From Planctomycetota bacterium (lineage in GTDB: Bacteria > Planctomycetota > UBA8742 > UBA2392): 64,000 nucleotides of DNA. The stretch spans positions 57,301 through 121,300 of the forward strand of contig JADKGX010000002.1 of assembly GCA_016722065.1 (NCBI GenBank). The letters are read 5' to 3'. Positions within the stretch are counted from its first letter, which is position 1. The number at the start of each line of letters is the position of its first letter. Shown piece by piece: positions 42,601 through 62,165 of the stretch. The position numbers were made by a program, and so were the translations under genes. The notes below the pieces were generated by a model. That model ran no database searches, was not told the origin of the DNA, and worked only from the letters and a program-made list of their open reading frames with translations.

Positions 42601-43470
42601 GCGGGCACGGTGGCGGCCTCGTTCACGGCGCCACAGGTTACGGCCACAACGATTCTTGTGCTGCGCGTGACCGTCAGTGACGGACGCGGCGGCAGTGACT
42701 TTGCAGACGTACAGGTTACGGTCAACGATGTTGTTGCGCCCAACAACCCGCCTGTGGCTAATGCCGGGGCGAATTTCAACGTCACGGAAGGGCTGGTCGC
42801 AAACCTTTCAGGGGCAGCCAGCACAGACCCCGATGGCGACCCACTGTCATACAGTTGGACGCAAATCGGCGGTTCGGCCGTAACTCTGGCCGGGGCCGCG
42901 ACGGTCGCCGCAAGCTTTACCGCGCCCATGGTGGCCGCATCAACACCGCTGACATTCCGGCTTACCGTCAACGACGGTCGTGGCGGCATCAACACCGACG
43001 ACATCGTTGTCACGGTGCTGGACAGCGCTGTCAACAACCCGCCAACGGCAAACGCCGGGGCTGATCAGGCCGTTAGCCAGGGCGCAGCGGTGAACCTTAA
43101 CGGCGCCGCCAGCAACGACCCTGAAGGTGACACGCTGACCTTTGCCTGGGTGCAGATCAGTGGCGTCAACACTGTGGTGTTGAACAACGCGGCTACCGCA
43201 GCGCCTGATTTTGTTGCGCCAGTAGCCGACGACGTGCTGGTGTTCCGCCTGACCGTCGACGACGGCCACGGCAACATCGACACAGACGAAGTTGCCATTA
43301 CCGTGGGCACGCCACCCGTAGGCAGCAGTGGGGGAGGCGGCAAAAAAGGCGGCAAGGGTGGTTGCAGCACCAGCGAAGAATCAAGCTGGATGTGGCTGTT
43401 GGCCGTGCTGGCACCGTTGGCCATGTTGCGTCGCGCACGGGTTTCTAAGCCAGAACCCCGTGTGCGGTAA
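39650..43470 (+). CDS. Secreted S8 subtilase with P-domain, four PKD/Ig-like repeats and C-terminal sorting tail; -1 frameshift at 41351-41354
   Basis: Triad GVWD / HSTHVTGT / GTSMASP; P-domain (HVQRGDI...ATGTWTVKVTD); four NxPPVAxAG repeats; one more G in the G4 run joins ORFs 39584-41437 and 41362-43470. Confidence 0.9.
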
Positions 43471-44326
43471 GCGCGCTCTTCATCGCCTGGCGGTTCTTGG
43501 CATGGATGGGCGCCAGTGGGGGACGCACGTTCTCAAGGCACAGACCAAGCAGCGCTGCCCCGGCCTTGACGGGCACGGGGTTGGATTCGGTGAAGCAGGC
43601 ATCAATCACGGGCAGGGCTTTGCGGTGGATAGCGCGGGCCCGGGCAAAATCGCCGCTTGAGATGGCACGGCACAGGGCGACCATGTCGGCCGGAATCAGG
43701 TTCGAAACAACGCTGACAATGCCTACCGCCCCAAGCGCCCCAAGCGGCAGCGTTGCAGCGTCATCGCCCGAAAAGAAAGCCATGTGCGGGCAGATCGCCA
43801 GCAATTCATCGGCCTGCTTCAGGTTACCCGTTGCGTCTTTGTAACTTGTGAAACTGGCCGGAAAGTCGCTCACCAGCCGCACAATCGTCTCCGTGGCAAT
43901 ATTCACAGCCGTACGCCCCGGAATGTTGTACAGCATGATGTCAAAGCCCGGCACGGCCTTGGCCACGGCGGCAAAGTGCAGGTACAAACCCTCCTGCTGC
44001 GGACGGTTGTAGGCCGGTGCGGCAATCAGGGCCCCATTGGCGCCCAGTTCGCGCACTTTGCGCGTGAAATCTACGGTCTCTGCGGTGCTGCTGGCGCTGG
44101 TGCCTGCCAGCACGGGTTTTCGACGGGCCACGCGCTTGACGGCGTGCCCCACCACCGCCTGGCGTTCGGCGGGTGTCAGGGTGATCGCCTCGCCGGTGCT
44201 GCCGCAGACCACAATGCCGTCAATGTCGTGTTTCAATTGGTGGTCAATCACGCGGTCCAGCGCGGCGTAATCAACGCTGCCGTCGGCTTGAAACGGCGTG
44301 ATGATAGCTGTTATGGCGCCTTGCAT
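43445..44326 (-). CDS. dapA: 4-hydroxy-tetrahydrodipicolinate synthase
   Basis: AIITPF, GSTGEA, PAYNRP, LYNIPGRT, YKDATG, SGDD, ESNPVPVK. Confidence 0.97.
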   Translation of the reverse strand: MQGAITAIITPFQADGSVDYAALDRVIDHQLKHDIDGIVVCGSTGEAITLTPAERQAVVGHAVKRVARRKPVLAGTSASSTAETVDFTRKVRELGANGALIAAPAYNRPQQEGLYLHFAAVAKAVPGFDIMLYNIPGRTAVNIATETIVRLVSDFPASFTSYKDATGNLKQADELLAICPHMAFFSGDDAATLPLGALGAVGIVSVVSNLIPADMVALCRAISSGDFARARAIHRKALPVIDACFTESNPVPVKAGAALLGLCLENVRPPLAPIHAKNRQAMKSALTAHGVLA

Positions 44327-44432
44327 GGTGGCCCCAACGATGGTCGGCAAACCGTAGCCACTGTGGGGGGTGAAGTCAAAGGGGGGCAAACCGGCGATGT
44401 CGCGGCATGTGATAAGCTTGCGTGGGGGACTC

Positions 44433-44900
44433 ATGCCAGACAGTGCCGAACGCCGCCGCAAGGCCCAGCGCAAGAAGTACCCAAAGAACTGGCGCATGAT
44501 CAGCAAGCGCGTGCGCTTTGAGCGTGCCCAGGGCCGCTGCGAATGGTGCAACAAACCGCACGGCCAGACCATGCGCGTTGGCGCCAAGGGTTGCTGGGCG
44601 CTGTCGGACGGCATCTGGCACGACCAATTCGGCCGCCGCATACCAGGCCCAATGCCCTGGCCCAGCAGCGATTGGTGGAAGCACGTGATTGCCCATGGTG
44701 GCGAACCGCCACAGATTCGCGAATCGGTCGTGACTCTCCAAACCGCGCACCTGGACCACGACCCGCAAAACTGCGCCGACGAAAACCTGGCCGCGCTGTG
44801 CCAGTTCTGCCACGCGGAGTACGACGTGCAGCAGCGAATCTGGTCTGGCGCCATCACCTGGGACCTGCGCCGGGGCCAGAAAGTCATGTTCAAGGGCTAG
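44433..44900 (+). CDS. Phage-type HNH endonuclease
   Basis: YPKNW...RCEWC...LQTAHLDHDPQNCADENLAALCQFCH. Confidence 0.85.
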   Translation: MPDSAERRRKAQRKKYPKNWRMISKRVRFERAQGRCEWCNKPHGQTMRVGAKGCWALSDGIWHDQFGRRIPGPMPWPSSDWWKHVIAHGGEPPQIRESVVTLQTAHLDHDPQNCADENLAALCQFCHAEYDVQQRIWSGAITWDLRRGQKVMFKG

Positions 44901-45116: not shown

Positions 45117-45146
45117 CTACGTCCGATAATCGATCAGTTGCGCGGT
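45117..45146 (+). repeat. attL: XerC arm + overlap + degenerate XerD arm
   Basis: CT-ACGTCCGATAA-TCGATC-AGTTGCGCGGT; the first 19 bp are identical to 62136-62154. Confidence 0.85.
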
Positions 45147-45148
45147 GC

Positions 45149-45160
45149 CAGTCCGATAAT
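45149..45160 (+). repeat. Second XerC-arm-like copy
   Basis: GTCCGATAAT repeated exactly 30 bp downstream of the attL copy. Confidence 0.6.
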
Positions 45161-45312
45161 TTTGCCCGCTTTGCGCGGGTGTTGTTCTTGGACTGTACCC
45201 CATGAAACGGTTCGCGTCAAAAGTTTCTGACATACCCTCAACACATCCGCCGTTGTCGCCAGAGTGAGTATCATTTTTCGGTGCCTACAACTGGCTTCGA
45301 AGGAGTTGCCCT

Positions 45313-46128
45313 ATGACAAGCCCAGAACAGAGCCGCAAAGATGCCAATGCACAACTAACGCGCGATGCCAAACGTGCTGGGGGCGCCATGTTACAGGGCG
45401 CCGGGCATGCCCTGGCGTTGCTCACTGACCCAGCCGATGAGCTCAAAGCAATGGGCAGGACGCTGTCAGAAGGCGTCAGGTCGAAGGACTACGCAGAGCG
45501 TGTTGAAGCCTTAGCAACAAGAAAGTGTGTTGCCGCCGCCTCGGCGCATCCCAAGTTGAGGGCGGGTCGGCAGGTCAATAAGCAATCGCTACACCAGTTG
45601 ATTCAGGAACTCACTTTGAAAGCAGTAGAAGCCAGAGTTGAAGATCGAATACGCGCGATTGTTGCTGCCTCGATTGGCGCGACGGAGGATGGGCCAATGG
45701 CAAGCGCGGCTGACTTGTACGCCGCAGAGACCATCCTTCAATCGAAAGACCATCAGATAGCATTCTTCCGGGAGTGGCTGAACAAGTGGATTGGGCCAAA
45801 GTGCCTCAACAATGTGGTGCCATGTCCCCATGCCCAGCTCGTTGGTCCTTATCCGCTACAAGCTGTTTGCGACGACAACATGCGAAACCAAATGGTTAGC
45901 GCGAGTCGCGGTTACTTCCCCGTTCCTCTTGATCACCCGACCAACATTTACGTCGAGACGTTTGTGTTCGGCCTTAAGACTAGTATGGAGATGACCCGAC
46001 AAGACCTGCACGACAAGAACCATCCCTTCGGCCACGGTGTTTGGTGGCCTTCGGAGTTGACTCAACGGATCCACAACGCCCTCGTTCGGGCACGAGAAAA
46101 CATCGAGTTTGAGCTGAATCTGGAGTAA
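45313..46128 (+). CDS. Hypothetical cargo protein (271 aa)
   Basis: Long ORF with AAGGAG RBS; visibly more AT-rich than the element core; no recognisable motif. Confidence 0.7.
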   Translation: MTSPEQSRKDANAQLTRDAKRAGGAMLQGAGHALALLTDPADELKAMGRTLSEGVRSKDYAERVEALATRKCVAAASAHPKLRAGRQVNKQSLHQLIQELTLKAVEARVEDRIRAIVAASIGATEDGPMASAADLYAAETILQSKDHQIAFFREWLNKWIGPKCLNNVVPCPHAQLVGPYPLQAVCDDNMRNQMVSASRGYFPVPLDHPTNIYVETFVFGLKTSMEMTRQDLHDKNHPFGHGVWWPSELTQRIHNALVRARENIEFELNLE

Positions 46129-46147
46129 GCGGTGCCTGGATTGGCCT

Positions 46148-46864
46148 CTAGGTCCTTTTCTTTTTCGCGTCGATACGCGCCCTCATCGCCGCAGCGTGGG
46201 CGGGTGTAACGTACAAGTCCACAAACAACAACTCGACAACGTCGATCGTGTATTCGGCGTCTGCGGCGTCTACATCGATTATGGTTTCTGCTTGGTCGGT
46301 GCTTGGGTGCGCACTCCAGTTACCGATTTCGCGTACATGATGCAGGCTGTCCTGGGTCGGTTTCGTTAGCTCTGGTCGCTTGACGGCTTCCTCGATTTCT
46401 TGAAACAGATCCCGTTTCTTGATAGCCAACTTGATGCGAATCAAGTGCTGGATACAGCGGCGGGCAAGAACCGCTGCGGCCATCGGGGACGATGCCAGAA
46501 CGGCTCGCGCTTGGTCGTAAGCACTCTTGATTTCTGGTTCTACTTCTGGAGGAGCGGCATCTGGCCGAGTGCTTTGAGCGGGCCACAAGAACACGCCCAA
46601 GGGCAGATACGCAGAAAGAGCCAACATGCTAACGCCCACTACCGCGCCGCAACAACTCGCACACTCGGATAGGTGCAACTGTTCCGCAACCCCGTGCGAG
46701 TCTGGCTTCACATTGCGAAAGATCGACCTCTTGGAAGGGTAGCCGTATGTAGCTACCTGAGCGAAGGAACCGTAGGCTCCGCAATGTGGGCAGAGCGCGG
46801 CAGCCCCTGCAAACACGCCTGATTCTTCGAAAACTTGCCGAAGCGGCCTGTGCTTTTTGTTCAT
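46148..46864 (-). CDS. DUF4145 (HEPN-like) protein with N-terminal Zn finger
   Basis: CPHC...CASC; AAAVLARRCIQ...LFQEI...VREIGNWSAH signature. Confidence 0.82.
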   Translation of the reverse strand: MNKKHRPLRQVFEESGVFAGAAALCPHCGAYGSFAQVATYGYPSKRSIFRNVKPDSHGVAEQLHLSECASCCGAVVGVSMLALSAYLPLGVFLWPAQSTRPDAAPPEVEPEIKSAYDQARAVLASSPMAAAVLARRCIQHLIRIKLAIKKRDLFQEIEEAVKRPELTKPTQDSLHHVREIGNWSAHPSTDQAETIIDVDAADAEYTIDVVELLFVDLYVTPAHAAAMRARIDAKKKRT

Positions 46865-46927
46865 AGTGCAAGCAACATATCATCGCCGCATCTGTGCGAG
46901 CAGTTCCCTTTTGGGCTTTTGGTACTG

Positions 46928-47374
46928 TCAAAACGGGATCTCGTCGCTGGTGGTGGCTGGCTCGAACCATGGCACCTGGGCGCCGTCGTCTGACCAGTCT
47001 GGCGCGGCTTCTTCCTGGGTCGGTTCTTCTTCCAGCCCTTTCGTGTTGTCGCGTGGCTGGTAGTGCTTGATCAAGTAGGCTTCGTGATCTAGCGGCTTGT
47101 CCGTTGCATACCACGCAATTTCTACGTCGTCGCGGTGGTAGGCTTCGCGGGGCTCGCCCCGGTCAATCCAATGGCCCATGTGGCGCTTGATCGTCTCGTA
47201 AAGGCGCCCTGTGTGGCTTTCGCCAACATAGAGCATGGCCTTGGTGCGGGCGTTTCGGATGCCGTACACCCCGTCAATCCAAGGCGCCATCTGCTTTGGG
47301 TAGCGCGTGCCTGGCGGGCCTGGGCGAAACCATTCGCCGGGCTTGAACGGGCGCGGGGTTTGAATCTTCTGCAT
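46928..47374 (-). CDS. GIY-YIG-like nuclease with acidic DEIPF tail
   Basis: GVYGIRN...LYVGES...IKRH...E...N pattern; ends TTSDEIPF. Confidence 0.72.
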   Translation of the reverse strand: MQKIQTPRPFKPGEWFRPGPPGTRYPKQMAPWIDGVYGIRNARTKAMLYVGESHTGRLYETIKRHMGHWIDRGEPREAYHRDDVEIAWYATDKPLDHEAYLIKHYQPRDNTKGLEEEPTQEEAAPDWSDDGAQVPWFEPATTSDEIPF

Positions 47375-47463
47375 GGGTTTCTCCGGTGCCTGATTTTTTG
47401 CTCTGCCTGTCGCGGGCCTGCGGTGTATCTTTGCACCTTCAAAGCACTGCCCTGGGGTTCCTT

Positions 47464-48009
47464 ATGACCACTTCTGTCGATGCCTTGATTTGCCCTCACT
47501 GTGCGGCCTCTATCGACGTGCCTGATGGCGTGACGCGCCTCAAGTGCCGGTTCTGCGGTAGCACGCTGGAACTACGCGAAACAGGCAGCGCGCGCGGCCT
47601 GGCGCTGTTGCAAGTGAGCGTTGACAAGATCGCGTCGGGTGTTGACGTGATTGCGCAGCACACGGGCGCGCTGGCCTCGCATACGTTGGGCGCGCGTGAA
47701 CGTTGGAAAGCCGCGTATGATTCCCTGCGTGGCCGGGCGCGCAAACGCATGCTTGCCGCAACGGTCGTGGCGCTCCTGGGCTTCGCGGCGATGTTCGCAA
47801 CGTATGCGTTTCTGACGGCCATAAATGAACTGCCGCCCACGGCGACGGCCACGCAACGGGCGCAAGCGCAACACGACGCGGGGGCCTCGTACCTGTTCGC
47901 CAGCATGTTCGCCACGTTGCCCTTTCTTCTGGCGGCGGGTGTCCTGCAGAAAGGCGCCCAAAACCTGGCAGCGGAAGCCCAAGCCCTGAAACAGCGCGAG
48001 CCGATCTAG
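47464..48009 (+). CDS. Zn-ribbon 2-TM membrane protein
   Basis: CPHC...CRFC, then two hydrophobic helices; opposite strand to the viral operon. Confidence 0.75.
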   Translation: MTTSVDALICPHCAASIDVPDGVTRLKCRFCGSTLELRETGSARGLALLQVSVDKIASGVDVIAQHTGALASHTLGARERWKAAYDSLRGRARKRMLAATVVALLGFAAMFATYAFLTAINELPPTATATQRAQAQHDAGASYLFASMFATLPFLLAAGVLQKGAQNLAAEAQALKQREPI

Positions 48010-48764
48010 CGCGAGACGATCACGGCCACGGCAACCGCGCCAACGGCCAAGGCGACAATCGGCCCCCATGGCATTGATGCCTCAATGCCCTCGCTAATGC
48101 CCTCGCCCACGGCCTTGCCTGTGCGCTTGATCAGATTCTCGGCGCCCTGGGCTACGGCCTCGGCCTGATGGGCAACGTAGTCGTCAACCTCTGACCACTT
48201 CACGGTGAACAGCGGCGCGCCTGGAATGAGGGCAAGCCACGGGTTGCCTTCAACTGCGAAGTCGGCGCCGATCTCGCTGCGCACGGCCTGGGCGTTGCTG
48301 TTGTAGCGGTCTTTGAGGCCGGAAAGCAGCGCGTCGGCCACGCGAACGGCGTGGGCCATCGCTGCGCCTGCGTTGTCGAGTGTGCGGCGCTTGGCGGCGG
48401 TAAACAGCGGCGCGGCGCCTTCCTTGATTGCCTGGGCGATGTTTGCAACGCGGTCGTTGTAGAGGCGCGCGGCGGTGTAGATATCCATAGCCGGGCCGTC
48501 CCACGCCTCTTGCGGGTAGCTGTTCCAGTTCGTCGCCAGCGCAAAGGCTTTGGCCTTGCGGGCTACTTCGTCGGCTTCAAAGAACGCCTGCAAGGTGGCG
48601 TCGTTGGAATAGTCGCCGGGCTTCCAGACCAGACGCGGGATTTCGTCGGCGGTGCCTTGGCTGCCGCGCACGCGCGGGCGGTGCATCTGGCCGGCTGGGG
48701 CGCTGGCGCGTGTGGCCGGCACAAAGCCGAACATGGTGGCGGGGCGTTGGAGTCTGCGGAACAT
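48006..48764 (-). CDS. Putative virion protein with C-terminal membrane anchor
   Basis: Helical body; ends WGPIVALAVGAVAVAVIVSR. Confidence 0.7.
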   Translation of the reverse strand: MFRRLQRPATMFGFVPATRASAPAGQMHRPRVRGSQGTADEIPRLVWKPGDYSNDATLQAFFEADEVARKAKAFALATNWNSYPQEAWDGPAMDIYTAARLYNDRVANIAQAIKEGAAPLFTAAKRRTLDNAGAAMAHAVRVADALLSGLKDRYNSNAQAVRSEIGADFAVEGNPWLALIPGAPLFTVKWSEVDDYVAHQAEAVAQGAENLIKRTGKAVGEGISEGIEASMPWGPIVALAVGAVAVAVIVSR

Positions 48765-48799
48765 GGCGGGCCTTTCGTTGGTGGTGGCCGTGGTGGGGT

Positions 48800-48853
48800 G
48801 GCGACGGGCGCGGGAGCCCCAACGCGGCGCGCCACGCGGGCGCGCCCGTCGCC
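48800..48853. repeat. 13-bp perfect inverted repeat (intergenic hairpin)
   Basis: GGCGACGGGCGCG (48800-48812) / CGCGCCCGTCGCC (48841-48853). Confidence 0.7.
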
Positions 48854-48861
48854 GGGAGTGT

Positions 48862-49353
48862 TCACTTGATCAAGCGCCAAAGCACAAAGGCCAGACCAGC
48901 GCCAATGATGGCGGTGGTGCCGGGGTTGGCCTTGATGGTTTCCATGATGCCGTTGCCCTGGGCCTTGGCGACGGCGTTGGCCACGTCGTCTGCGCGGGCG
49001 TCGGGCACGGCGCCCACGGCGCCCGTGGCGCCTTTGTCGGTCGATGCCGGGCTTGTGGGGCCGGTGGGCTCGGGCAAGCGTTCGGCGGGCTCCTCCACGC
49101 GCTCCACGGGCGCGGCAAGGTTGAGCTGCGCGAACGTGGCAAAGCTGACGTCGTTGCCTGGGTAACTTGTCCAGCGGCCATTTGACGTGCGGCGGAACAT
49201 CGAAACCTCGCGCGGCGGAACGCCGGTGCCTCGATCTGCTGCAAAGGGCTCGCGCAAGTAAGCGACGGTGCCGATGGGATATTCCTTGGGCACGGCGGCG
49301 CCCAAAATGCCGGGCACCTTTGCGGAACCAAAAAAGCCCGTTTCAATGATCAT
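48862..49353 (-). CDS. Putative virion protein with C-terminal membrane anchor
   Basis: Small N-terminal domain, Pro/Ala linker, ends TAIIGAGLAFVLWRLIK. Confidence 0.7.
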   Translation of the reverse strand: MIIETGFFGSAKVPGILGAAVPKEYPIGTVAYLREPFAADRGTGVPPREVSMFRRTSNGRWTSYPGNDVSFATFAQLNLAAPVERVEEPAERLPEPTGPTSPASTDKGATGAVGAVPDARADDVANAVAKAQGNGIMETIKANPGTTAIIGAGLAFVLWRLIK

Positions 49354-49481
49354 GGGGAACCTCGGGAAGTGCCGCCCGCAAGGCAAGGCTTACGGGCGGC
49401 GGGGTGGATTTGTGGCGGGTGGTGTCCTTGGTCGTCCTGGCCTTCGGTTTGCGATCCTGGGGCATTTGTGGCGGTCGTTTT

Positions 49482-49826
49482 TTACTCCCTTGGGCCGGTT
49501 GGCCGGGTTTGCGGCCTGTAGGGCACTTCGGGGAGTTCTTCGCCCTGGTCTTGGTCTTGGTCGTACTCGGCCTGGTCTTGGTCGCTCATGGGGATTGTGC
49601 CGGTGCATCGGTGCGGGTGCGGGCTCAAGGTTTGGCTGATGGCCGGGAGTATCGCGGCGATGCCAGCGGCAAACATGTTTTGCATGGCGGCGGCGCGCTC
49701 GCGGCCTTCCTGCAGAATGCAGTTGTTGCGGTGCCATGCCAGCGCCAGCCGGGCAAAGCCGCCCGCGCTGCTGATCAAGATGGCCGTAATGGCCAGAATC
49801 AAGGCGGCAAAGGGTAGGTCGTTCAT
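49482..49826 (-). CDS. Small membrane protein with acidic tail
   Basis: N-terminal TM (FAALILAITAILISSAGG); CAGGAG RBS. Confidence 0.6.
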   Translation of the reverse strand: MNDLPFAALILAITAILISSAGGFARLALAWHRNNCILQEGRERAAAMQNMFAAGIAAILPAISQTLSPHPHRCTGTIPMSDQDQAEYDQDQDQGEELPEVPYRPQTRPTGPRE

Positions 49827-49877
49827 CGGTGGGGCTCCTGGTGGTGGTCGGGGTTGGTGGTGGTTTGCGTGGCGGTG

Positions 49878-50207
49878 CTACTTGGTGATGGCCTTGAGTA
49901 AGCCGGGAATCAACGTGCCGATCATGCTGGCGCCGCGCGTGACGGCATCTTGCAACGCGGTCGTGAGGGCGCGCGCCGTGGTGATGCTGACGGCGGCCGC
50001 CACGTTCTGTACCTGGGCGGCAAGATCAAGCCGGGCCTGGGCGTCTACCTTGCCTGTGGCCAGTTCGCGCGCGGTGTTGGTGAAAGCGGCGCGCGCCACC
50101 TTGCCCACAAGCGCGCGGTCTTGCTCGCTCCACTTGGCTACCTCGTCGCCAGCGCTGCGCTTGATTGCCTCAAGTATCATGCGGGCAAAATCTCCTGCGG
50201 TCGTCAT
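49878..50207 (-). CDS. Hypothetical helical protein with amphipathic C-terminus
   Basis: GGAG RBS; in operon. Confidence 0.65.
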   Translation of the reverse strand: MTTAGDFARMILEAIKRSAGDEVAKWSEQDRALVGKVARAAFTNTARELATGKVDAQARLDLAAQVQNVAAAVSITTARALTTALQDAVTRGASMIGTLIPGLLKAITK

Positions 50208-50276
50208 TGCAATGGCTCCGGTTGCGGGTTGCGAAAGCCTGCAAGGGGCGCCCGTGGGCGCCCCTTCGGGCGACGG

Positions 50277-50612
50277 TCAAAACGCGAGTCTTACCTTCTC
50301 CACGCCGGTGATGCCTCCGGCCTGCGCGGCCAGCGTGTAGGCCAGCGCCAGCCACAAGCGCTGCGTCTCGCTCTTGGCCTGGCCGGGCGTGAGGCGCTTT
50401 TCCAGTGCGGCCATTTCGCCATGGTGAAAGTTGGTGACGTGGGCGGGCACGCTGCTTGTGGGCGCGCCGTTCAAGCGCTCGGCCAGTTTGCCCAACGTGG
50501 CGATGGCGTCTTGGGCTTCCTCGCCCTGGTGGGGCATCTTGCCGATGCGCTGCATTGCCTCGGCAATCGTGCGGTCGCTCTGGCTGGTCTTGGCTTTGGT
50601 CTTGGCTGCCAT
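50277..50612 (-). CDS. Hypothetical protein
   Basis: AAGGAA RBS; in operon. Confidence 0.6.
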   Translation of the reverse strand: MAAKTKAKTSQSDRTIAEAMQRIGKMPHQGEEAQDAIATLGKLAERLNGAPTSSVPAHVTNFHHGEMAALEKRLTPGQAKSETQRLWLALAYTLAAQAGGITGVEKVRLAF

Positions 50613-50665
50613 GGGTCGGTTTCCTTGCGTTGGTGGTGGTGGTGGTGGTTTGGTTGGTGCCGGGG

Positions 50666-50959
50666 TTACTTGCCCTCGGCCTTTCGCAGCCTCAAGTCCC
50701 ACGTCTTAAGCGTGGTCAAGCCCTGGTCGCGCTGTTCGTCGGTCAAGCTGCTGTCGGCCTCGATGTAGCGGGCCTGGCGCGGCGCCACGGCGTTGTATGT
50801 GGCGCGGTCGGCCTTGACGTACTCGCCCTGCACGGTGCAGCCGCAAAGCAGCGCCAGAAGCGGGCCAAGCACAAGCACAAGCACAAACAGCAACAAGGCG
50901 GCGCGCTCGCGTCGGCGGTCTGTTGGTGGCGGGTTGTCGGTTGTGATCGTCGGGCTCAT
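50666..50959 (-). CDS. Small lipoprotein (o-spanin-like candidate)
   Basis: RRRER + hydrophobic stretch + LLCGC lipobox; short helical mature part. Confidence 0.7.
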   Translation of the reverse strand: MSPTITTDNPPPTDRRRERAALLLFVLVLVLGPLLALLCGCTVQGEYVKADRATYNAVAPRQARYIEADSSLTDEQRDQGLTTLKTWDLRLRKAEGK

Positions 50960-50998
50960 CGGTGGGGCTCCTGTGTGGGTTGCTCGCGGGCTCGCGGG

Positions 50999-51310
50999 CT
51001 AGTTGTCGGTGGGCCTGGCCTTGGTGTTCTCGCGGATTGCGGCGGCAAGCTCCGCGATGTTGGCGCCGCCCTGGGCCATGGCGGCGGTGTGGGCGGTCTG
51101 CGCAACGGCCTGGGCCTCGGCGGCGGTCGCGGCGCGCTCTGCGATGGCAAGCGCGCGGTCGCGGTGCGTGAGTAGCTTGTCAATCAATGGCTGCACGTTC
51201 TCGCGCCACGCGGCTTTGACCACGCGCGAAAGCAAGCCGCCAATGATCAGCAAGGCAGCCGGAAGCGGCGCGTTGCTCAAGAGCGTGGCCAGTGCGGTTG
51301 TTTCGTCCAT
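50999..51310 (-). CDS. Single-TM coiled-coil protein (holin- or i-spanin-like candidate)
   Basis: N-terminal TM (LPAALLIIGGLL) followed by an Ala-rich coiled coil; directly upstream of the lipoprotein. Confidence 0.6.
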   Translation of the reverse strand: MDETTALATLLSNAPLPAALLIIGGLLSRVVKAAWRENVQPLIDKLLTHRDRALAIAERAATAAEAQAVAQTAHTAAMAQGGANIAELAAAIRENTKARPTDN

Positions 51311-51323
51311 GGTGCGGGCTCCG

Positions 51324-52205
51324 TTAGATGCCGTAGTAAGTTTTCAAGTCGTCAACCAACGTGGCATAGTTGGCATAGAGGCCATCGCTTAGGCTTCGCA
51401 GGCAATATCAAGATCGGCCTCGCCCAAGCCCAAGGCGCCCGCGTCGGGTGTCCAGTCGGCATTTTCTGCGACGGTCACAAAGGCGCCGCCGTCGATTGCG
51501 AGTTTCAATTTCTTCTCGCCTGCGGTGTTGTCAAAGCGCACATGCAGAACATGGGCGCCCACGTTGAACGCGGTATTTATCGCGGTCTGCGCGTAGCCTG
51601 TGAGGAAGCCGTAAGCGCGGGCGCCGGTGGTGTATTGGCGCACCACAAAGGGCCGGTTGGAGCCCAAGGCGCATATGCTCAAGTTGTCGTCGGCGGAAAC
51701 GCGGCGCACCACAATAAAGTAGTCGTAACTCTTGGCCGTGATCATGGCGGCGGCGGTGGTGTTCGTCGCCATCCCATGACTAAAGCCCTTTAATGGCTTC
51801 GATGTAGAGCGTGGGCTTGCCGTTAATTGCGTGGTCGCCGTCGCCCTTGCCGTGCTTGTAGTTGTTATTTCCGTTGCTCTGGTATGCCCACAATGCGCCC
51901 TCTGCGGGCGCGCGGCGTTTGATCACCTCGCCTTCGGTGCCTGCTGCGGGTGTGGTGCCCGCAACGTCGGTAAACAGTTTGGCCAAGTCCTCTTGGTAAA
52001 CCCAAGTAAGGCCGGTGCCTGCCAGCGGGTGCGACGGGCCAGCCGGGGGCGCGGGCGCGATGCTGGCGGCCACGCTGGCGGCCAAGCTGACGGCGCTGGC
52101 GACGGTGACGGAAAACAGCGCCGCGCCGCCCAATGCGCCGCCGCCCGCGTAGCCTATGGCGCGCGTGCGGGGCGGTTCGATCACGGGCAAGAACATCGCG
52201 GGCAT
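51324..52205 (-). CDS. Putative spike / receptor-binding protein (LamG-like beta-sandwich), split by two apparent frameshifts
   Basis: Three segments in different frames join into one protein ending ...LVDDLKTYYGI*; breaks at 51782-51784 and about 51395. Confidence 0.55.
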
Positions 52206-52212
52206 GTTTTCC

Positions 52213-52659
52213 CTAGCAGTTGCAAGTTGCGTCGGCGCTGACCATTTCGCGCACTTCGATGCTGACGGTTGCGTCTTTGCGGGTGCTTCCGTCCACGGCG
52301 GAAAGCGCCACAAGATCAAGCGTGAGGCTCTTGATGCCTGCGGGCGCGGCTTCCACCTTGCTGCCCTCGGCGCTGATAAAGAGGCCGCGGCCTGCGGCCA
52401 ATTCGTTCAACGCTTCGTCGGGCGTGAAAGGTGAATTCACGGCCACGAACACAAGCGCGTCGTCGTCGCCGGTGATCGTGGGCCACTGTTGCAACGTGAT
52501 CGCCCACGCCTTTGTTTCGGGGCCGCGCGGCAAGTCGATCTGCACGCGGTGGCTGGTGTCGGCGCTGCTGACCAGCTCGCGCGATGCCCACGGGCGGGCG
52601 CGGCCTGGCACCAAAGGGCGCAAGGCTTCGGCTATCGTTTTGCAATCGCAATCTTTCAT
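52213..52659 (-). CDS. Beta-rich 148-aa protein (penton / single jelly-roll candidate)
   Basis: Alternating hydrophobic beta patterns (RVQIDL, WAITLQ, LVFVAV, LTLDLV, VSIEVRE); lies between the capsid candidates and the spike. Confidence 0.55.
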   Translation of the reverse strand: MKDCDCKTIAEALRPLVPGRARPWASRELVSSADTSHRVQIDLPRGPETKAWAITLQQWPTITGDDDALVFVAVNSPFTPDEALNELAAGRGLFISAEGSKVEAAPAGIKSLTLDLVALSAVDGSTRKDATVSIEVREMVSADATCNC

Positions 52660-52686
52660 GGCCGGGTTTCCTTGGTCTGCCTGGGC

Positions 52687-52713
52687 CGGGCGCGCCGCGC
52701 GACGGCGCGCCCG
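52687..52713. repeat. GC-rich hairpin 3' of the 367-aa gene
   Basis: CGGGCGCGCCG-cgcga-CGGCGCGCCCG. Confidence 0.65.
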
Positions 52714-52748
52714 ATGGCTCACCCCGTCGCGCGGGGCCGGGGTGGGGG

Positions 52749-53852
52749 TTACACCCCGTTGGCGGCACCTTGGAATTCGTCCTGGGCGCTGCGGCCTTCA
52801 AAGATGCTGACAAGCCGCAACGTGCGCGCGGCGGCGGGCGTGGTGGCGTTGATCTTCACAAAGGCCGATTCGTCGCGGTGCATGTCCACCTGGCCGAAAG
52901 CCCAGTCAAGCCCGGTGTGGCCGATGGCGTGACGGGCCGGAACGGGGTCGGTCGGGTGGGCCTGGCTTTGCGTGGCCAGTTCGGTCGTGAGCGCCAAGAA
53001 TTCACTCTCAAGGCTGATGCTGTTGGCATCGTGCAACAAGCCGCGCACGCGCAAGCGGCGCAAAAGCTTGCCGTGCTGCGCGGCGGGCGTTTGCTCGATG
53101 CGGCTTTGGAAAGCGGCGCTGTAGGCCGTGGCGTTGCCAAAGAACACGGTTTCACCTTCGCCGTTCTTGAGGCGCGTCCAAAGGGCTTCGGCCTGCTGGC
53201 CTGCGGCGCCTTCGCTTGGAAACTCCACGCAATGCAGAATCACGCGGCTAATGCGGGCGCTTGCGCCGGTCAAGTCCTGCAACGTCATTGTGACCAGTTC
53301 TTGCGGGTTGATGGCGATGGCGCCCACGCGGCGCCCGTCTGCCAGTTCCAACACGGTGCCGGGGAAGTAAACGCCGGGGTGTTGGCCTTGAATTGCCAGC
53401 GTGGCGACGGCGCTCAAGAGCGCTGTATTCAAGGTGCGCTGCAAGGCCAGTTGCGTCGTGAGTTCCTTGAAATTGTTGTTGAGCGTGGTTTGGTTGAACG
53501 CGGCGCCCACGTCGTCAACGGTGGCGTCAGCCGTGCCGACTGCGTGAGTAAGCGCGGTGGTGTTGGTCGCGGCGGGAATCGTCGCGGCCAATGAACCGCC
53601 ACTGAGTTCGTCAAACAGCGGCATGGGCGTGGGGGCAATCAAGCCCAAGGGGAAGCCGTCGCCCTGGGCGTAGTTGCGGCCTGCCACCTTGAAACTTGTA
53701 ATCAAGTTTTGCAGCGCGTGGCGCGGGTGCGTGGCGACGTAGGAAACGCCGATAATGGCGGCGCGGCATCGCGGCTTGCGCGAAAACACCACGGGCGCAA
53801 GGCCGCCCGTGTATGTGGTTTGGTCGCTGATTAGATCAAAAGGCTTGAGCAT
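52749..53852 (-). CDS. Candidate double jelly-roll capsid protein (367 aa) with head-fibre-like insert
   Basis: Two beta-rich halves of about 130 aa; helical insert ADATVDDVGAAFNQTTLNNNFKELTTQL in the first half; GGAG RBS. Confidence 0.55.
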   Translation of the reverse strand: MLKPFDLISDQTTYTGGLAPVVFSRKPRCRAAIIGVSYVATHPRHALQNLITSFKVAGRNYAQGDGFPLGLIAPTPMPLFDELSGGSLAATIPAATNTTALTHAVGTADATVDDVGAAFNQTTLNNNFKELTTQLALQRTLNTALLSAVATLAIQGQHPGVYFPGTVLELADGRRVGAIAINPQELVTMTLQDLTGASARISRVILHCVEFPSEGAAGQQAEALWTRLKNGEGETVFFGNATAYSAAFQSRIEQTPAAQHGKLLRRLRVRGLLHDANSISLESEFLALTTELATQSQAHPTDPVPARHAIGHTGLDWAFGQVDMHRDESAFVKINATTPAAARTLRLVSIFEGRSAQDEFQGAANGV

Positions 53853-53891
53853 GGCGGCGGTCTCCGTGGGTGGTCGTTTGGTTGGCCGGGT

Positions 53892-53937
53892 GGCTTGAGT
53901 TGGCGCCCTTGATTGGGCAAGGGCGCCGCTTCAAGCC
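53892..53937. repeat. Long hairpin directly 3' of the 210-aa gene
   Basis: GGCTTGA/TCAAGCC outer stem and GGCGCCCTTG/CAAGGGCGCC inner stem. Confidence 0.72.
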
Positions 53938-53944
53938 GTCAAGA

Positions 53945-54577
53945 TCAACCCTTCACGGCGTCTGCAACTTCGATGTAGCCGGTCACGCTGATGACGCCTG
54001 AGAAAGCCTCGGCAAGCGTCACGCCGGTGATGCCGTCAAACAGCACCTTGAACACTTCGCCGGGGTTGAGGATGTCCAGCGGGTTGACGTGTTCCTGGCC
54101 ATCGGGGCGCTTGCACTGGTTGAAGTGCACAAGCGAACCGGCAAAGCCGTCGTCGTCGGCGGCGGCGCCCTGGTGGGTGCCTTCAAAGCCCAACGCGTAC
54201 GCGCGGGCGGCGTTGATCACGCTGGCGGCGTTGGCGCGCTTCAGTTCCGCCGTCAAGAGGCGCATGATCTGGTGGGCCGTGCCTTCGGGAACGCGGGTGC
54301 CAGCGGCGTCAAACACCAGAATCAAATTGCCGATGTTGCGCCAGCGGTCGCTGCCGTTGGTGAAGTTCATCGTGCCAGCCAAGCCAAGCGTGGTGGCGCT
54401 GAGGGCAACGGCGGCATCGCACTTGATGAAGTTGCGCTCAAAGCGCTTGGCGCTGCTGAAATACTCGTCCATCTTGAATTTGCCGCCCGCGAAAGCGAAA
54501 GCGACGGCGCCAAAGTCGCGCAAGCGGTTCTGCTGCAACTCCTGCGCGGCTTCTTCGATCTGTTTCAGGGTAAGCAT
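53945..54577 (-). CDS. Candidate major/minor capsid protein (210 aa, single jelly-roll-like)
   Basis: Beta-rich; GGAG RBS with unstructured ACC-rich leader; strong 3' hairpin. Confidence 0.5.
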   Translation of the reverse strand: MLTLKQIEEAAQELQQNRLRDFGAVAFAFAGGKFKMDEYFSSAKRFERNFIKCDAAVALSATTLGLAGTMNFTNGSDRWRNIGNLILVFDAAGTRVPEGTAHQIMRLLTAELKRANAASVINAARAYALGFEGTHQGAAADDDGFAGSLVHFNQCKRPDGQEHVNPLDILNPGEVFKVLFDGITGVTLAEAFSGVISVTGYIEVADAVKG

Positions 54578-54634
54578 CTGGTGGTCTCCGGTGTTGGTGG
54601 TGGTCTGGTTGGTGTTCACCCCGCGCGGGGTTTG

Positions 54635-54955
54635 TTACTTGAAAAGCGAACTTCCAAGGCTGCCGATGAAGCCCTTGCCGGTGTCCAGCGCAAAATCAAG
54701 CAGCCGGTCGCCGATGGGCTTGTCCAGCGCCTTGAGTTCGGCCTTGCGTACCTCGGCGGCAAGCTCGGCCTGGCGTTCGCGTGACTGCGCCTCGGCAAGC
54801 CGCGCCTGGGCGTCTGCGGTCAAGGCTGCTGCGCCGCTATCGGGCGGAAGCAATGCCTCGTTTGTGGCGGGTTTCTTGCTGACGTAGAGCAAGCCGCCCA
54901 CAACTACTGCGGCGGCAAGTCCTCCGATGGCAAGTGTTGCTCCGTTGATCTTCAT
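54635..54955 (-). CDS. N-anchored virion membrane protein
   Basis: MKINGATLAIGGLAAAVVVGGLLYVSKK TM, coiled coil, amphipathic C-terminus. Confidence 0.72.
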   Translation of the reverse strand: MKINGATLAIGGLAAAVVVGGLLYVSKKPATNEALLPPDSGAAALTADAQARLAEAQSRERQAELAAEVRKAELKALDKPIGDRLLDFALDTGKGFIGSLGSSLFK

Positions 54956-55005
54956 GGCCGGGCGTCCTTGTGTGGTCTGTTCTTGGGTTGGCGTTTCCCT
55001 TGAAA

Positions 55006-55482
55006 TCAGTTCACAAGATCGCGCACGCGGCCATTTTGCGGGCGGTCGTTGGCGACGGTGCGCGAAATGCCCTTGCTGCCTTCGACGGTGGGCTCGGTGG
55101 TGGCCTTGGCGGGCTTCACCTTCTCGGCAATCCACGCGGCCAGTTCCTTGATTGCGGGGGCCGCGCGGCCTGCGACGGCCAAGGCGGTGCCGCCCAAGAT
55201 CGCGGCGGCAAACTTCTTGGTCGCCTTGATCTTGCTGGCGCCAAAGGCCACGGCGATGCCAGCGCCAGCGGCGATGGCGCTGGTGATCACCTGGCGCTTG
55301 GTGGTCTCGGTCGCGGCGGGCTCGCCCATCGCGGCGTTGGCCACTTCGGCGGCGACGGTTGACAAGCCTGCGCCGGTCAAGGTTGCGGCGCCCTGTTTGA
55401 CGGCGGGCACAAGCGCCAGCGCGCGATTGCCGCCGTTGCTGCTTTTGCCGGGCGGCTTGCGGGTTCCTTTGTTTCCTGCCAT
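55006..55482 (-). CDS. Multi-TM virion membrane protein
   Basis: Basic N-terminus plus two to three Gly/Ala-rich hydrophobic helices; CAGGAG RBS. Confidence 0.7.
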   Translation of the reverse strand: MAGNKGTRKPPGKSSNGGNRALALVPAVKQGAATLTGAGLSTVAAEVANAAMGEPAATETTKRQVITSAIAAGAGIAVAFGASKIKATKKFAAAILGGTALAVAGRAAPAIKELAAWIAEKVKPAKATTEPTVEGSKGISRTVANDRPQNGRVRDLVN

Positions 55483-55543
55483 GGCTCTTACTCCTGGTTG
55501 GTGGTGGTCTGCCTGGTGTGTGTTGCTGGTGTGCGTGGCCGGA

Positions 55544-55909
55544 TTAGCCCACGGTCTTGCGCAGCCGATCACGCGCGGCGTTTAGCGCCGTGCGTTCTTC
55601 GTCTGTGAGTCCTTTGACAAAGCCGGAAGCGTGGGCAAGTTTGCCGTCGCTGCAAAACTGCGAGTCGGCAAGCTGCTTGATAATCCGCAAGCCCTGGGCC
55701 TCTTTCTGCGTGAGGGTGGGGCGGGCGGGTTGCGGTGTGGCCTTGCGCGTGGCCTTGCGGGCCGGTTTGCGCGGCGTGGCCTTGCGCTTGGCCTTGGGGG
55801 CCGGTTTGCGCGGCGTGGCCTTGCGCGTGGCCTTGCGGGCGGGCTTGCGCGCGGCGGGCTTGCGCTTGGCCTTGGGGGCCGGTTTGCGGTTGGTTGTCTT
55901 TTTGCTCAT
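55544..55909 (-). CDS. Histone-H1-like basic DNA-condensing protein
   Basis: Repeats of RKPAPKAKRK / RKPARKATRKATP over the first 60 aa. Confidence 0.72.
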   Translation of the reverse strand: MSKKTTNRKPAPKAKRKPAARKPARKATRKATPRKPAPKAKRKATPRKPARKATRKATPQPARPTLTQKEAQGLRIIKQLADSQFCSDGKLAHASGFVKGLTDEERTALNAARDRLRKTVG

Positions 55910-57450
55910 CTGCCTTTGCCTCCTGTAAGTGCCAAGCCGATCACAACTGCCGCGCCTGCCGCACAAGCCGCCCAAATCCAGCCGGGCGGGCCGGTGCTTT
56001 GCGGCGGGCCTGGGCCGGTGGGCTCGGGTGCTTCGGGCGGTAGCAGCGCCACTTGCGCGGCTTCGGTGGTCTGTTTGCTGACGGCGATTTCGGATTCCAG
56101 CGCCGCGATTTCGGCCTTGATCGTGTCCACCTTGGTTTGTTCGGTCGCGGCCTGGGCTAGTGCGCGCTCGCGGGCTTCCTGCACCTGGCGTGCATCGCGG
56201 CGGTCTTGGATTGCGCGGTGAATCGCGGTGCCAGCGGCCACGGAAGCGGCGCCAAGGGCGGCGGCGGCGATGTTGTAGGGCACGGGCAAGAATGGCGCCG
56301 CCACAAGTAGCGCGCGGCCTGCGGCGGTGAACGTCTGCGCGCCAGCCTCGGCCACGGCGGTTTCATCAAAGGCGGAAACGCTGCCATCAATGAACACGGC
56401 GCCAAGCTGGTTGAGGATTTCGGCCTGGGCGAAAAAGCCAAGCGGCTTCAAGAGAAAAGTCGCCAGCCACGGCGCGGTTTTCTCGGTGCGCAAGATGTTT
56501 TCGGCCAATGCTTGCGCGCCCTTGCCTATTTCCTCGATCACGTTTCGCACAAACTTAAGCGGGTGGGTAAACAGCCGCTTGAGGCTGTCGCCAATGCCGT
56601 TGGAACCGGTCACGCTGCCGATCATTACGGGCGGCGTGGTGATCGCGCTGCCTGCAAGGCCGGTGGCGATGGCCTCGCGCGCGGCGATGTTGTCCAGCGC
56701 CACGGGCGCGGCTTGGTGCAAGGCTAGCGCGTCGTCTATGGCGGTGCCCTGGGCCGTGAAGATTTGCGCCATGCGGGCCGCGACCACGGCGGCAAGCTGT
56801 ACGTCGGTTGCGGTGGGGTTGCCCTCGTTGGCCAGCGCGAAGGCGCGCAAGGCGGCGCGGCGCTGCGTGAAGCCTTCGCCGGGCTCGATCATGGAACCGG
56901 CCCAACGTGAGGCCAGCGCAATATTGAGGCTGCCCAAATCGCGCGGTTGCGCCAGCGGCGCCAGTGTGGCGGCGCGCACAAGCACGCCAGCGGGTCGAAA
57001 GCCCTGGTCAACGTAGGCCAGCCGGAACGCGATAAAATGCAGCATCGCGGCGCGGGTTTCGTTGTAGGTGCCAGCGGAAAGCGCTTTTTCGACGGCGGCG
57101 CGCGCGGGCGCGCCCTTGGCGCGTCCGATCATGGCAAGAAACACGTTGGTTTGTTCTTCGCTCAAGGCGCGGAGTAGATCGCCCCACGTTCTGATGGTCG
57201 GGTTGTCGGGCGCGGGCGCGGCCTGCATCTGCGCAAGCGGCAAGGCTGCGAGTAGCGCGGCCTTGGTGACTGAGCCGGTAAAGCCTGACTCAAGCGCCGA
57301 TTGGCGCGGGCCTGTGCCGCCGCCCGCGTCCTTGTCGCCAATGCGGCGCCAGTAGGCTTCGCGGATTGCGGCGGGCACAAGCTGCCATGCGCGCCAGTCC
57401 ATTACGGCGGGCGCGGTGGCGGGCAAGCTGTATTCGGCGGCAAGGCTCAC
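55906..57450 (-). CDS. Large Ala-rich virion protein (about 514 aa) with internal hydrophobic hairpin and C-terminal TM
   Basis: GTG start overlapping the upstream stop, GGAGG RBS; ends WIWAACAAGAAVVIGLALTGGKGR. Confidence 0.7.
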   Translation of the reverse strand: MSLAAEYSLPATAPAVMDWRAWQLVPAAIREAYWRRIGDKDAGGGTGPRQSALESGFTGSVTKAALLAALPLAQMQAAPAPDNPTIRTWGDLLRALSEEQTNVFLAMIGRAKGAPARAAVEKALSAGTYNETRAAMLHFIAFRLAYVDQGFRPAGVLVRAATLAPLAQPRDLGSLNIALASRWAGSMIEPGEGFTQRRAALRAFALANEGNPTATDVQLAAVVAARMAQIFTAQGTAIDDALALHQAAPVALDNIAAREAIATGLAGSAITTPPVMIGSVTGSNGIGDSLKRLFTHPLKFVRNVIEEIGKGAQALAENILRTEKTAPWLATFLLKPLGFFAQAEILNQLGAVFIDGSVSAFDETAVAEAGAQTFTAAGRALLVAAPFLPVPYNIAAAALGAASVAAGTAIHRAIQDRRDARQVQEARERALAQAATEQTKVDTIKAEIAALESEIAVSKQTTEAAQVALLPPEAPEPTGPGPPQSTGPPGWIWAACAAGAAVVIGLALTGGKGR

Positions 57451-57941
57451 GCAAGCCTCCAATGCTGGCGGCGCGGATAGTGCGGCATATCGGCGCGTGT
57501 GTTGAACGGGTGGCCGGTCTGGTCTGCCTTCGGGTCGGAAAGCCACATCTTGCCGCCTGCGAAAAACTCAACGGCGGCGTGGCGGTACGGGTCGGCCTCG
57601 TCGCCAGCCGTGACCAGATAGACGCGGGCAAAGCCAAGCACGCGCAAGCCTGCCATGATCACGGCGGCCCACTGGTCGCAATCTCCGCCGTGGGCGATGG
57701 TCTCCGATACTTCCTGAATCGGGTCGCACTCGTCGCGGTCGCTCTGGCGGTAGATGCCTGCGCGGGCGGCGTCGTGTAAGGCTTCGGCGGTGGTGGCGTT
57801 GTTGGCGTGCATCCAAGCCACAAGCGCGCGGCGCTGGTCAAGATCGCGGGCGCCACGCTGCGCAGCCGCCAAAATCGCCGGGATAGTTTCGACCGGGTAG
57901 CGGCGGCGCTTGTCTGCTTGGCTGGTGTAGCAGAATTCCAC
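57447..57941 (-). CDS. Transglutaminase-like (Cys-His-Asp) protein
   Basis: GGDCDQWAAVIMAGL...YRHAAVE...WLSDP triad pattern. Confidence 0.8.
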   Translation of the reverse strand: MEFCYTSQADKRRRYPVETIPAILAAAQRGARDLDQRRALVAWMHANNATTAEALHDAARAGIYRQSDRDECDPIQEVSETIAHGGDCDQWAAVIMAGLRVLGFARVYLVTAGDEADPYRHAAVEFFAGGKMWLSDPKADQTGHPFNTRADMPHYPRRQHWRLA

Positions 57942-57946
57942 GGTGA

Positions 57947-58297
57947 CTACTCCACGGGCTTCGGTGCGGGCTTTGCGGTCTCTTGACTGGTCAAGTCTGC
58001 TTTGATCTCGCCTTGCGCCTGGTGAATCATGCGCACTACCTCGGCGCGCAACTTGGGCGCGCTGGCCAGTGCGGTACGGTGCGCGATGCGTTTCAGCGGC
58101 GGCAACGTAGCAAGGCCGGTCTCGATGATGTGCGACGGCGGCGCGCCCACAAGCGCGCGCTTGGCCTGGGCGGAAAGCCCGTGCATGGCGGCGCGTGCAA
58201 GCTGTTCGTCGCTTTCCCAAAGCGCCAGCGCCTTGCCCAACAAGCGGGCGTCGGCGGGCGGCAAGGGAATCGGGCGCGGCTTGGGGACGCTGCTCAT
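57947..58297 (-). CDS. Hypothetical protein
   Basis: ATGA overlap with the upstream gene, GGAGG RBS. Confidence 0.6.
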   Translation of the reverse strand: MSSVPKPRPIPLPPADARLLGKALALWESDEQLARAAMHGLSAQAKRALVGAPPSHIIETGLATLPPLKRIAHRTALASAPKLRAEVVRMIHQAQGEIKADLTSQETAKPAPKPVE

Positions 58298-59202
58298 TCT
58301 GCGCCCTCCACGTCGGAAACTTCGGCGGTCGTGTCCACGGTTTTTACGCCGGTCATCTTCTCGCGGGCGTATTCAAAAATGGCCTGGATGTTTTCTTCGC
58401 TGGCGATGTTGTCCATGAAGCGCGCCAGCGCGCCGGGCTTGTCCTCGCGCACGTCCTCGGCGGCCTCGATCAACGGCGCGAGTTCGGCCTTCATGCGGGC
58501 GCCCAAGCTGGTCAACTTGCGCACCTCGCCAATTACCTTGCTGATTTGCTCCATGGGGTCTACGGGCTTGCGGGCGCGCTCGATCACGTCAAGCACAAGC
58601 TCGCGGCCTAGCATGTCCATGGGCGACGGCGCGGCCTGGCGCTGTTCCAGCCGTTCCAGCGCGCGGCGCATTTCCGCAAGCTCGGGGTTGGGCGCGGCGT
58701 GGTCGGGCGCGGCCTGGGCCTGGGCGGCGTCGGGCTCGATCATCAAAGCAAAGTGGGCCTCGTGCTTGCCGTCCTGGTCACTCCACGCCACGGTTCCTGC
58801 AACGTGGCCAGCGCCAGCGCGGCGCCGCATTGTTGCAATGGCATCGGGCGCCAGATGCGCCAGCGGGCACGCGATTTCCCGGCCTTGATCGGCGGTAAAC
58901 TTCACGGTGGCGGCGCGGTGGGGGACGGCCTGCAATTCGTCGGCGGTAAAGGCGCCGCCGTCAATCAAGCCCTGCAAGTAGCGCGGGATGGGCGCGGTTG
59001 AGCCGGTGCCGCGCCCGTTTTCCGCGTGGGCCTCTGCGCGCCGAACGGTGGGGCCGCGCGTGGGTGGCTCGGGGCGCGGTTCGGCGGGCATCGGCGGGAA
59101 GTCGTCGTCTAGCTCGTCGTCGGCGGGGTTGCCGCCCATGCGGTCGGAAAACAGCGCGGTGTTTGCCGTGTTGAGCGTGGGCTCTGTGCTGTCCGGTTGC
59201 AT
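58294..59202 (-). CDS. Hypothetical protein (acidic/Pro N-terminus, helical C-terminus); first gene of the putative late operon
   Basis: About 302-aa ORF coupled to the downstream gene. Confidence 0.65.
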   Translation of the reverse strand: MQPDSTEPTLNTANTALFSDRMGGNPADDELDDDFPPMPAEPRPEPPTRGPTVRRAEAHAENGRGTGSTAPIPRYLQGLIDGGAFTADELQAVPHRAATVKFTADQGREIACPLAHLAPDAIATMRRRAGAGHVAGTVAWSDQDGKHEAHFALMIEPDAAQAQAAPDHAAPNPELAEMRRALERLEQRQAAPSPMDMLGRELVLDVIERARKPVDPMEQISKVIGEVRKLTSLGARMKAELAPLIEAAEDVREDKPGALARFMDNIASEENIQAIFEYAREKMTGVKTVDTTAEVSDVEGAE

Positions 59203-62085: not shown

Positions 62086-62137
62086 CTTTCCTTGTGGACT
62101 GGCGTGTCCGCCTGTTCGCTTCCGGGCGTAATCTTCT

Positions 62138-62165
62138 ACGTCCGATAATCGATCTTATGTTCGGT
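62138..62165 (+). other. attR = intact dif-like site (XerC arm / 6-bp overlap / XerD arm)
   Basis: ACGTCCGATAA-TCGATC-TTATGTTCGGT; 11-6-11 layout with ATAA/TTAT inner symmetry; right arm matches E. coli TTATGTTAAAT at 8/11. Confidence 0.82.

Follow-up and report, generated by a model that had tools for sequence, protein, structure and literature searches.

Within the 64,000-nucleotide stretch of planctomycete DNA analysed here (the window), we found a provirus of about 17 kb that is inserted exactly at the chromosomal dif site. The insertion leaves one intact dif, the element contains neither a recombinase of a known family nor XafT, and the host encodes XerC, XerD and FtsK. By its sequence the element can be classified as an IMEX with an attachment site of the TLC/GGI type, and it is probable that a double-jelly-roll (DJR) provirus without a known recombinase was captured at dif by the host XerC and XerD. 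That these two proteins carry out the recombination is what we infer from sequence. The use of half a dif site is a trick known from cholera-type phages; here it is found in a new bacterial phylum and in a new virus lineage.

The XerC arm and the 6-bp centre are identical in the two sites that flank the element, and all differences are confined to the XerD arm (Table 1). The original prediction had described both sites in these terms, with ACGTCCGATAA-TCGATC in common, and this was read directly at 45119-45146 and 62138-62165. The identity extends outward by 2 bp (CT), which results in 19-bp direct repeats. The 17-mer consisting of the XerC arm and the centre occurs exactly twice within the window, and shuffling gave an expectation of 0.02 matches when up to three mismatches were allowed. 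Alignment of the XerD arm of attL to dif showed 6 of 11 matching positions, namely T4, G5 and the outer CGGT, in agreement with the TG and outer CGGT that had been predicted to be kept. Because at least 6 of 11 matches occur by chance with a probability of 0.03 at the base composition of the element, this residual likeness is weakly significant. The putative assignment of the arms to XerC and XerD follows their likeness to proteobacterial dif, which has TTATGTT on the XerD side.

Table 1. Features of the window and attachment sites of related elements
Feature	Coordinates	Strand	Remarks
attL, copy of the element's attP	45119-45146	+	ACGTCCGATAA-TCGATC-AGTTGCGCGGT; XerC arm perfect, centre TCGATC, XerD arm degenerate
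attR, intact chromosomal dif	62138-62165	+	ACGTCCGATAA-TCGATC-TTATGTTCGGT
19-bp direct repeat, left copy	45117-45135	+	CT, XerC arm and centre; crossover lies somewhere inside
19-bp direct repeat, right copy	62136-62154	+	CT, XerC arm and centre
Accessory XerC-arm-like half-site CAGTCCGATAA (9/11)	45149-45159	+	Inside the element; starts 30 bp after attL
Body of the integrated element, ~17 kb	45147-62137	-	Nearly all genes on the minus strand
Left chromosomal flank	43445-44900	.	dapA (DHDPS, -) and HNH-like Cys-rich ORF (44370-44900, +)
Right chromosomal flank	62319-63563	+	414-aa exported protein; adjoins dif in all relatives
attL-side end of the element	45313-46864	.	GC 0.56 vs 0.64; 271-aa ORFan (+) and DUF4145 protein (-)
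Probable double-jelly-roll major capsid protein, 367 aa	52749-53852	-	AlphaFold2 and Foldseek
Iteron-like palindromic GGTGGTGTATACCACC repeats, 22-bp spacing	60046-60172	.	Inside putative initiator gene (59729-60994, -)
Xre-type helix-turn-helix regulator, 112 aa	60661-60999	-	Kept in relatives of both arm types
Cys-rich 97-aa protein	61301-61594	-	Common to XerC-armed relatives L032 and G018
Cys-rich 164-aa protein	61591-62085	-	First gene beside attR; no family match
Sites in G018	L018:2115-19200		XerC-armed; ACGTCCGATAA-TCGATC-CGACGTCCAAG, then dif 17.06 kb away
Sites in L032			XerC-armed; ACGTCCGATAA-TCGATG-AGGTGTTCTAT, then dif
Sites in G011	L019		XerD-armed; full dif first, second site TCGAGCCCTAA-TCGGTG-TTATGTGCGGT
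Sites in L029	17930-17962 (site)		XerD-armed; full dif first, second site CGATAAGACAC-TCGCTC-TTATGTTCGGT

Judging from sequence, the right-hand site (62138-62165) is the real dif of this planctomycete host. When the assembly (3.86 Mb in 6 contigs, 88% complete) was searched with the 28-mer at up to eight mismatches, the sites at 45119 and 62138, that is attL and dif, were the only ones recovered, and the proposal that no further dif-like 28-mer exists in the genome held to this extent. A better canonical dif elsewhere was also sought; apart from an unrelated palindrome on contig C1, the generic pattern ATAA-N6-TTAT[GC] matched only at 62138. The site had been expected near the GC-skew switch. 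Cumulative GC skew on contig C2 peaks at 120-140 kb, with dif at C2:119438, and the skew minimum, corresponding to the origin, lies at 1.86 Mb on contig C1. Of 23 genomes from the same family, 16 contained exactly one copy of the dif 28-mer (at most three mismatches), and a reversed control pattern of the 28-mer had zero occurrences in these 23 genomes. The host XerC (C1:737 kb; TIGR02224, 335.8 bits) and XerD (C1:2319 kb; TIGR02225, 345.6 bits) both scored above the NCBIfam equivalog cut-off, and FtsK was found as an 886-codon reading frame.

An earlier genome-wide, systematic prediction of dif failed for Planctomycetota (PMC3025954). The present analysis locates dif for one family of this phylum as CT-ACGTCCGATAA-TCGATC-TTATGTTCGGT. 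The CT just outside the XerC arm is kept in nearly all family genomes (loci L001-L012; 62136-62137 in the window) and in most attPs, so that the conserved dif is effectively 30 bp long.

In two sister genomes of the same genus (G001 and G002; loci L004 and L002), the flanks of the element meet at one intact dif, indicating that the 17 kb is an insertion. The same flank-dif-flank arrangement with a single dif was observed in several other genera, and the insert has a strong strand bias of its own, its genes lying almost all on the minus strand. These observations bear on the idea that the left site arose by decay of a duplicated dif or matches by chance, and that the 17 kb is ancestral and not mobile but was lost in the relatives. 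We regard this idea, for which we find nothing beyond its bare possibility, as extremely improbable, given the shuffling expectation of 0.02, the intact single dif between the same flanks in the sister genomes, the presence of related elements with different arms at dif in other genera, the detection of one relative as a circular junction, and the capsid protein and separate strand bias of the insert.

Two further genera of the family (G018 and G011) and two metagenome or MAG contigs (L029 and L032) carry collinear homologous elements at dif. No related element was detected in 378 other Planctomycetota genomes, and a wider metagenome search for the element returned one further contig only. One relative was observed in two states. 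Contig L033 (16.9 kb, from another sample) is 99.9-100% identical to the prophage L032 and circularly permuted, and its junction (9525-9543), tgtccgctaact-ACGTCCGATAA-TCGATG-AGGTGTTCTAT-cgattctcg, joins both ends of the L032 prophage with a 19-bp core overlap. The contig comprises one unit plus about 190 bp, which fits a circle, although a tandem prophage would yield the same junction. This element occurs both integrated (L032) and in a circular-junction form (L033), indicating that such elements are not simply locked in. In the attP of L033 the XerC arm is perfect, the centre agrees fully with that of the host's dif (6/6), and the XerD arm is degenerate. The attP that the original prediction had reconstructed from the window was correct, and this free junction in a close relative has the same design. 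Because the identity of the centre in an integrated element is partly a product of recombination, evidence on a real attP comes from the free form of the relative only.

Throughout this small family of planctomycete DJR proviruses, attP occupies the same place on the gene map. The window element (G000), G018, L032/L033 and L040 imitate the XerC half of dif, and G011 and L029 imitate its XerD half. The latter two are inserted on the XerD side of an intact dif, and their second site combines a degenerate XerC arm with a preserved centre and XerD arm. A displaced XerC-like arm is found further out, by 10 bp in G011 and by 5 bp in L029, giving a spacer of 16 or 11 bp rather than 6. G018 has the same flanks and the same order of attL and dif as the window, with the whole element inverted; the orientation of its attP relative to the genes is consequently opposite to that in the window element. 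In L040, which was recovered as a free form, two perfect XerC arms lie 60 bp apart (11571-11658), with degenerate XerD arms and the centres TCACTC and TCGCTC, an arrangement suggestive of a dual attP that serves two dif variants, or of the remains of an earlier array. Extra XerC-like half-sites were also found near attP in the window (45149-45159), L032/33, L040, L029 and G011, with an expectation of 0.03 per 528 bp. L038, a distant relative in a host of 51% GC, carries a 296-aa tyrosine recombinase (8809-9699) at the end where the others carry attP, and is an int-type variant such as those among Vibrio DJR prophages. That arms and orientations are exchanged among members of a single virus family with no known activator is the most interesting extension of the half-site arrangement.

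The nature of the element was examined through its 367-aa protein, for which 44 representative relatives were found among 1.84 billion proteins. An AlphaFold2 model built from an alignment of 37 of these 44 had a mean pLDDT of 87. The best Foldseek matches in the PDB were P3 of PR772 and PRD1 and the PBCV-1 capsid proteins, and those in BFVD were capsid proteins of giant viruses, the STIV coat protein and tectivirus Wip1. The top DJR matches had probabilities of 0.9-1.0 and TM-scores of 0.32-0.44, the modest TM-scores being due in part to a long helical insertion. The model therefore points to a probable double-jelly-roll capsid fold, and the best description of the element is that of a tailless double-jelly-roll provirus, as opposed to a filamentous satellite or a secretion island. 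The capsid protein had no match in 50,697 GenBank phage records or in IMG/VR. No Walker-A motif ([AG]xxxxGK[ST]) was present in the six frames of 45119-62165, indicating the absence of a recognisable packaging ATPase.

Pfam and PHROG scans of the approximately 30 ORFs of the element returned only DUF4145, weak helix-turn-helix and sub-threshold transglutaminase-like matches. These scans revealed no recombinase of a known family, and neither a serine or tyrosine recombinase nor a DDE domain was found; about 25 of the element's proteins belong to no family, and the recombinase scan covers known families only. The four tyrosine recombinases (PF00589) of the genome are all on contig C1, with none in the insert. 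The element might nevertheless encode a site-specific recombinase or nuclease of its own that is not recognised, in which case dif would merely be a safe target and Xer would be uninvolved. Room for such an enzyme is left by the predominance of ORFans, a conserved 148-aa GIY-YIG-like protein lies near attL, and the tyrosine recombinase of L038 at the equivalent end suggests that lysogeny modules are exchangeable. However, the identity with dif starts and stops at the Xer arm and centre, and the relatives copy either arm, always the centre, and in either orientation, which fits a symmetrical site of two recombinases better. The GIY-YIG-like gene is missing in the XerC-armed L040 and present in the int-type L038. 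With no recombinase or DDE domain found, we consider an enzyme of the element's own very unlikely.

The original prediction had placed the site in a TLC/GGI-like class. The architecture agrees with this assignment, since an attP copy and an intact dif flank an element without its own recombinase, but XafT (DUF3653), the hallmark of TLC, is absent. A six-frame search with PF12375 found no DUF3653 protein genome-wide (best E 0.7, on contig C1) and none in the element; no XafT was found in any element of the planctomycete DJR provirus family, and the att-proximal proteins had no DUF3653 match. The activator of a TLC-type, XerD-first reaction is consequently missing or unrecognised. The 164-aa protein beside attR may be a lysogeny or Xer-accessory factor, and this protein and its 97-aa neighbour, both Cys-rich and early, are candidate activators by position only. 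The 112-aa Xre-type regulator matched HTH_31 weakly, and three of its homologues matched phrog_2104 at E 1e-4 to 1e-5; against phage records it gave generic Xre matches only (E ~0.5). Its gene is the fourth from the end of the element, and the comparison with the Vibrio-like terminal p16/p15 pair was made by family matches only.

These data make probable a reaction by which the circular double-stranded genome of a tailless DJR provirus entered the planctomycete chromosome. The host XerC and XerD would have recombined its attP (ACGTCCGATAA-TCGATC-AGTTGCGCGGT) with the chromosomal dif (ACGTCCGATAA-TCGATC-TTATGTTCGGT). The crossover itself lies inside the 17-19 bp of identity. The prophage is accordingly bordered on the XerC side by an attP copy whose XerD arm is poor and on the XerD side by an untouched dif, which could still resolve chromosome dimers. 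The G at position 5 of the weak XerD arm is found in 5 of 5 XerC-armed attPs of the virus family (chance ~0.005), for which reason we infer that XerD may still contact this arm. Similarly, because the free attP of the relative keeps all six central bases, both strand exchanges may be completed as in TLC-phi. We put the chance of a full XerD and XerC reaction, aided by some factor other than a DUF3653 protein, at about even.

A different division of labour is possible, in which XerC alone would exchange one pair of strands, the Holliday junction would be resolved by replication or by a nuclease of the host or the element, and XerD would be at most architectural. CTX-phi and VGJ-phi as a rule integrate through XerC alone (PMC4246890), and the perfect XerC arm next to a poor XerD arm, the lack of a recognisable XerD activator and the extra XerC-like half-sites that cluster near attP in several relatives would be in keeping with it. 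On the other hand, the VGJ-phi centre lacks homology beside the XerD side (PMC4246890), and the free attP of the relative keeps 6/6 central bases. The sister elements with a perfect XerD arm and a degenerate or displaced XerC arm would be hard to reconcile with a family driven strictly by XerC. A second, inverted site that could form a hairpin is absent: in the 250 bp to each side of the attP junction, no inverted XerC- or XerD-like arm was found, which also bears out the original prediction that the element does not belong to the single-stranded, hairpin-forming CTX class. Overall, a reaction driven by XerC alone seems rather unlikely. We tentatively suggest, as a possibility only, that one good arm and the centre are enough for Xer capture in this phylum. 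The helper would then be a new non-DUF3653 activator among the Cys-rich att-proximal ORFans, or there would be none, and half-site switching would be a normal part of IMEX evolution.

Among published elements, the one described here most resembles the dif-type DJR prophages of Vibrio reported in 2025, whose attPs correspond to the whole 28-bp dif or to 17 bp of it, taken from the left or from the right, and which coexist with int-type prophages (PMC12715192). In both cases a tailless DJR provirus without an integrase resides at dif and carries an attP that imitates dif in part or in full, a single virus group includes int-type as well as dif-type members, and variable cargo lies next to the attachment site; the AT-richer region at the attL-side end (45313-46864) is probably such a cargo or variable region. 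In the Vibrio phages, however, the terminal genes encode a XafT homologue (p15) and a repressor resembling RstR (p16), whereas DUF3653 was undetected here. The planctomycete host, the size of about 17 kb, the lack of a Walker-A ATPase and the unrelated capsid sequence are further differences.

Like the present element, TLC-phi and the gonococcal island (GGI) are flanked by an attP copy and an intact dif (PMC9226527, PMC6744903). In TLC-phi, too, the XerC arm is good, the centre agrees with dif, the XerD arm serves XerD poorly as a substrate and the integrating form is double-stranded (PMC9226527, PMC6744903, PMC4246890), and in both elements the weak arm has kept G as its fifth inner base. In contrast, TLC-phi is a small filamentous satellite of Vibrio cholerae and encodes XafT, a protein with HTH and DUF3653 parts that activates XerD, whereas the element here is a 17-kb DJR provirus without DUF3653. 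The GGI of Neisseria, 57 kb long, is a type IV secretion island rather than a virus. It also lacks XafT, and its authors considered that an activator might belong to a different superfamily (PMC6744903). Experiments have shown that the GGI is stable against FtsK-dependent excision; the original prediction that attL would resist FtsK-driven excision here is an assumption by analogy with it.

VGJ-phi and CTX-phi likewise have no integrase, insert at dif and depend on the host XerCD. VGJ-phi has both arms and no central homology on the XerD side (PMC4246890), whereas in our element the XerD arm is degenerate and the centre matches at 6/6 positions. The integrating form of CTX-phi is a single strand folded from two inverted sites (PMC4246890), and no inverted site is present here. 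A parallel of another kind comes from the Legionellales, where integration of a mobile element is reported to reveal the dimer-resolution site in a group with a previously unknown dif (PMC9765430). The recombinase system and the element are different there, and the planctomycete host has a classical XerC/XerD pair.

One-armed attachment sites, which were worked out in Vibrio and Neisseria, thus extend to an unsampled tailless DJR lineage in a distant phylum. A family that includes XerC-armed, XerD-armed and inverted attPs and has no XafT provides a compact natural set for the question of how imperfect sites are activated. Prophage finders that are keyed to integrases or to genes of tailed phages would miss the 17 kb.

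Several smaller observations were made along the window. The ORF at 44370-44900 (+), between dapA and dif, is Cys/His-rich and HNH-like with good coding statistics; it has no Pfam match, and homologues with 52-67% identity lie beside dif in G018, G011 and L032. A GC-rich hairpin (gcccgc-tttg-cgcggg) follows the CAGTCCGATAA half-site at 45149-45159. The GIY-YIG-like protein near attL (46928-47374, -) has the motifs GVYGI...LYVGES, is 48% identical in four relatives and is among the best-conserved genes of the element. Its Pfam match is weak (E 0.055, in the G018 homologue), and its profile had no match among solved structures. We considered this protein as a junction-resolving partner of XerC-armed attPs and rejected it on the basis of its distribution in L040 and L038. 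The 257-aa protein showed sub-threshold matches to Transglut_core (E 0.0096, 16.6 bits against a cut-off of 23) and DUF553 (E 0.033). Finally, four to five tandem 39-bp repeats at 55693-55887 encode a Lys/Ala/Pro/Arg-rich stretch of a 143-aa protein (55544-55975, -).
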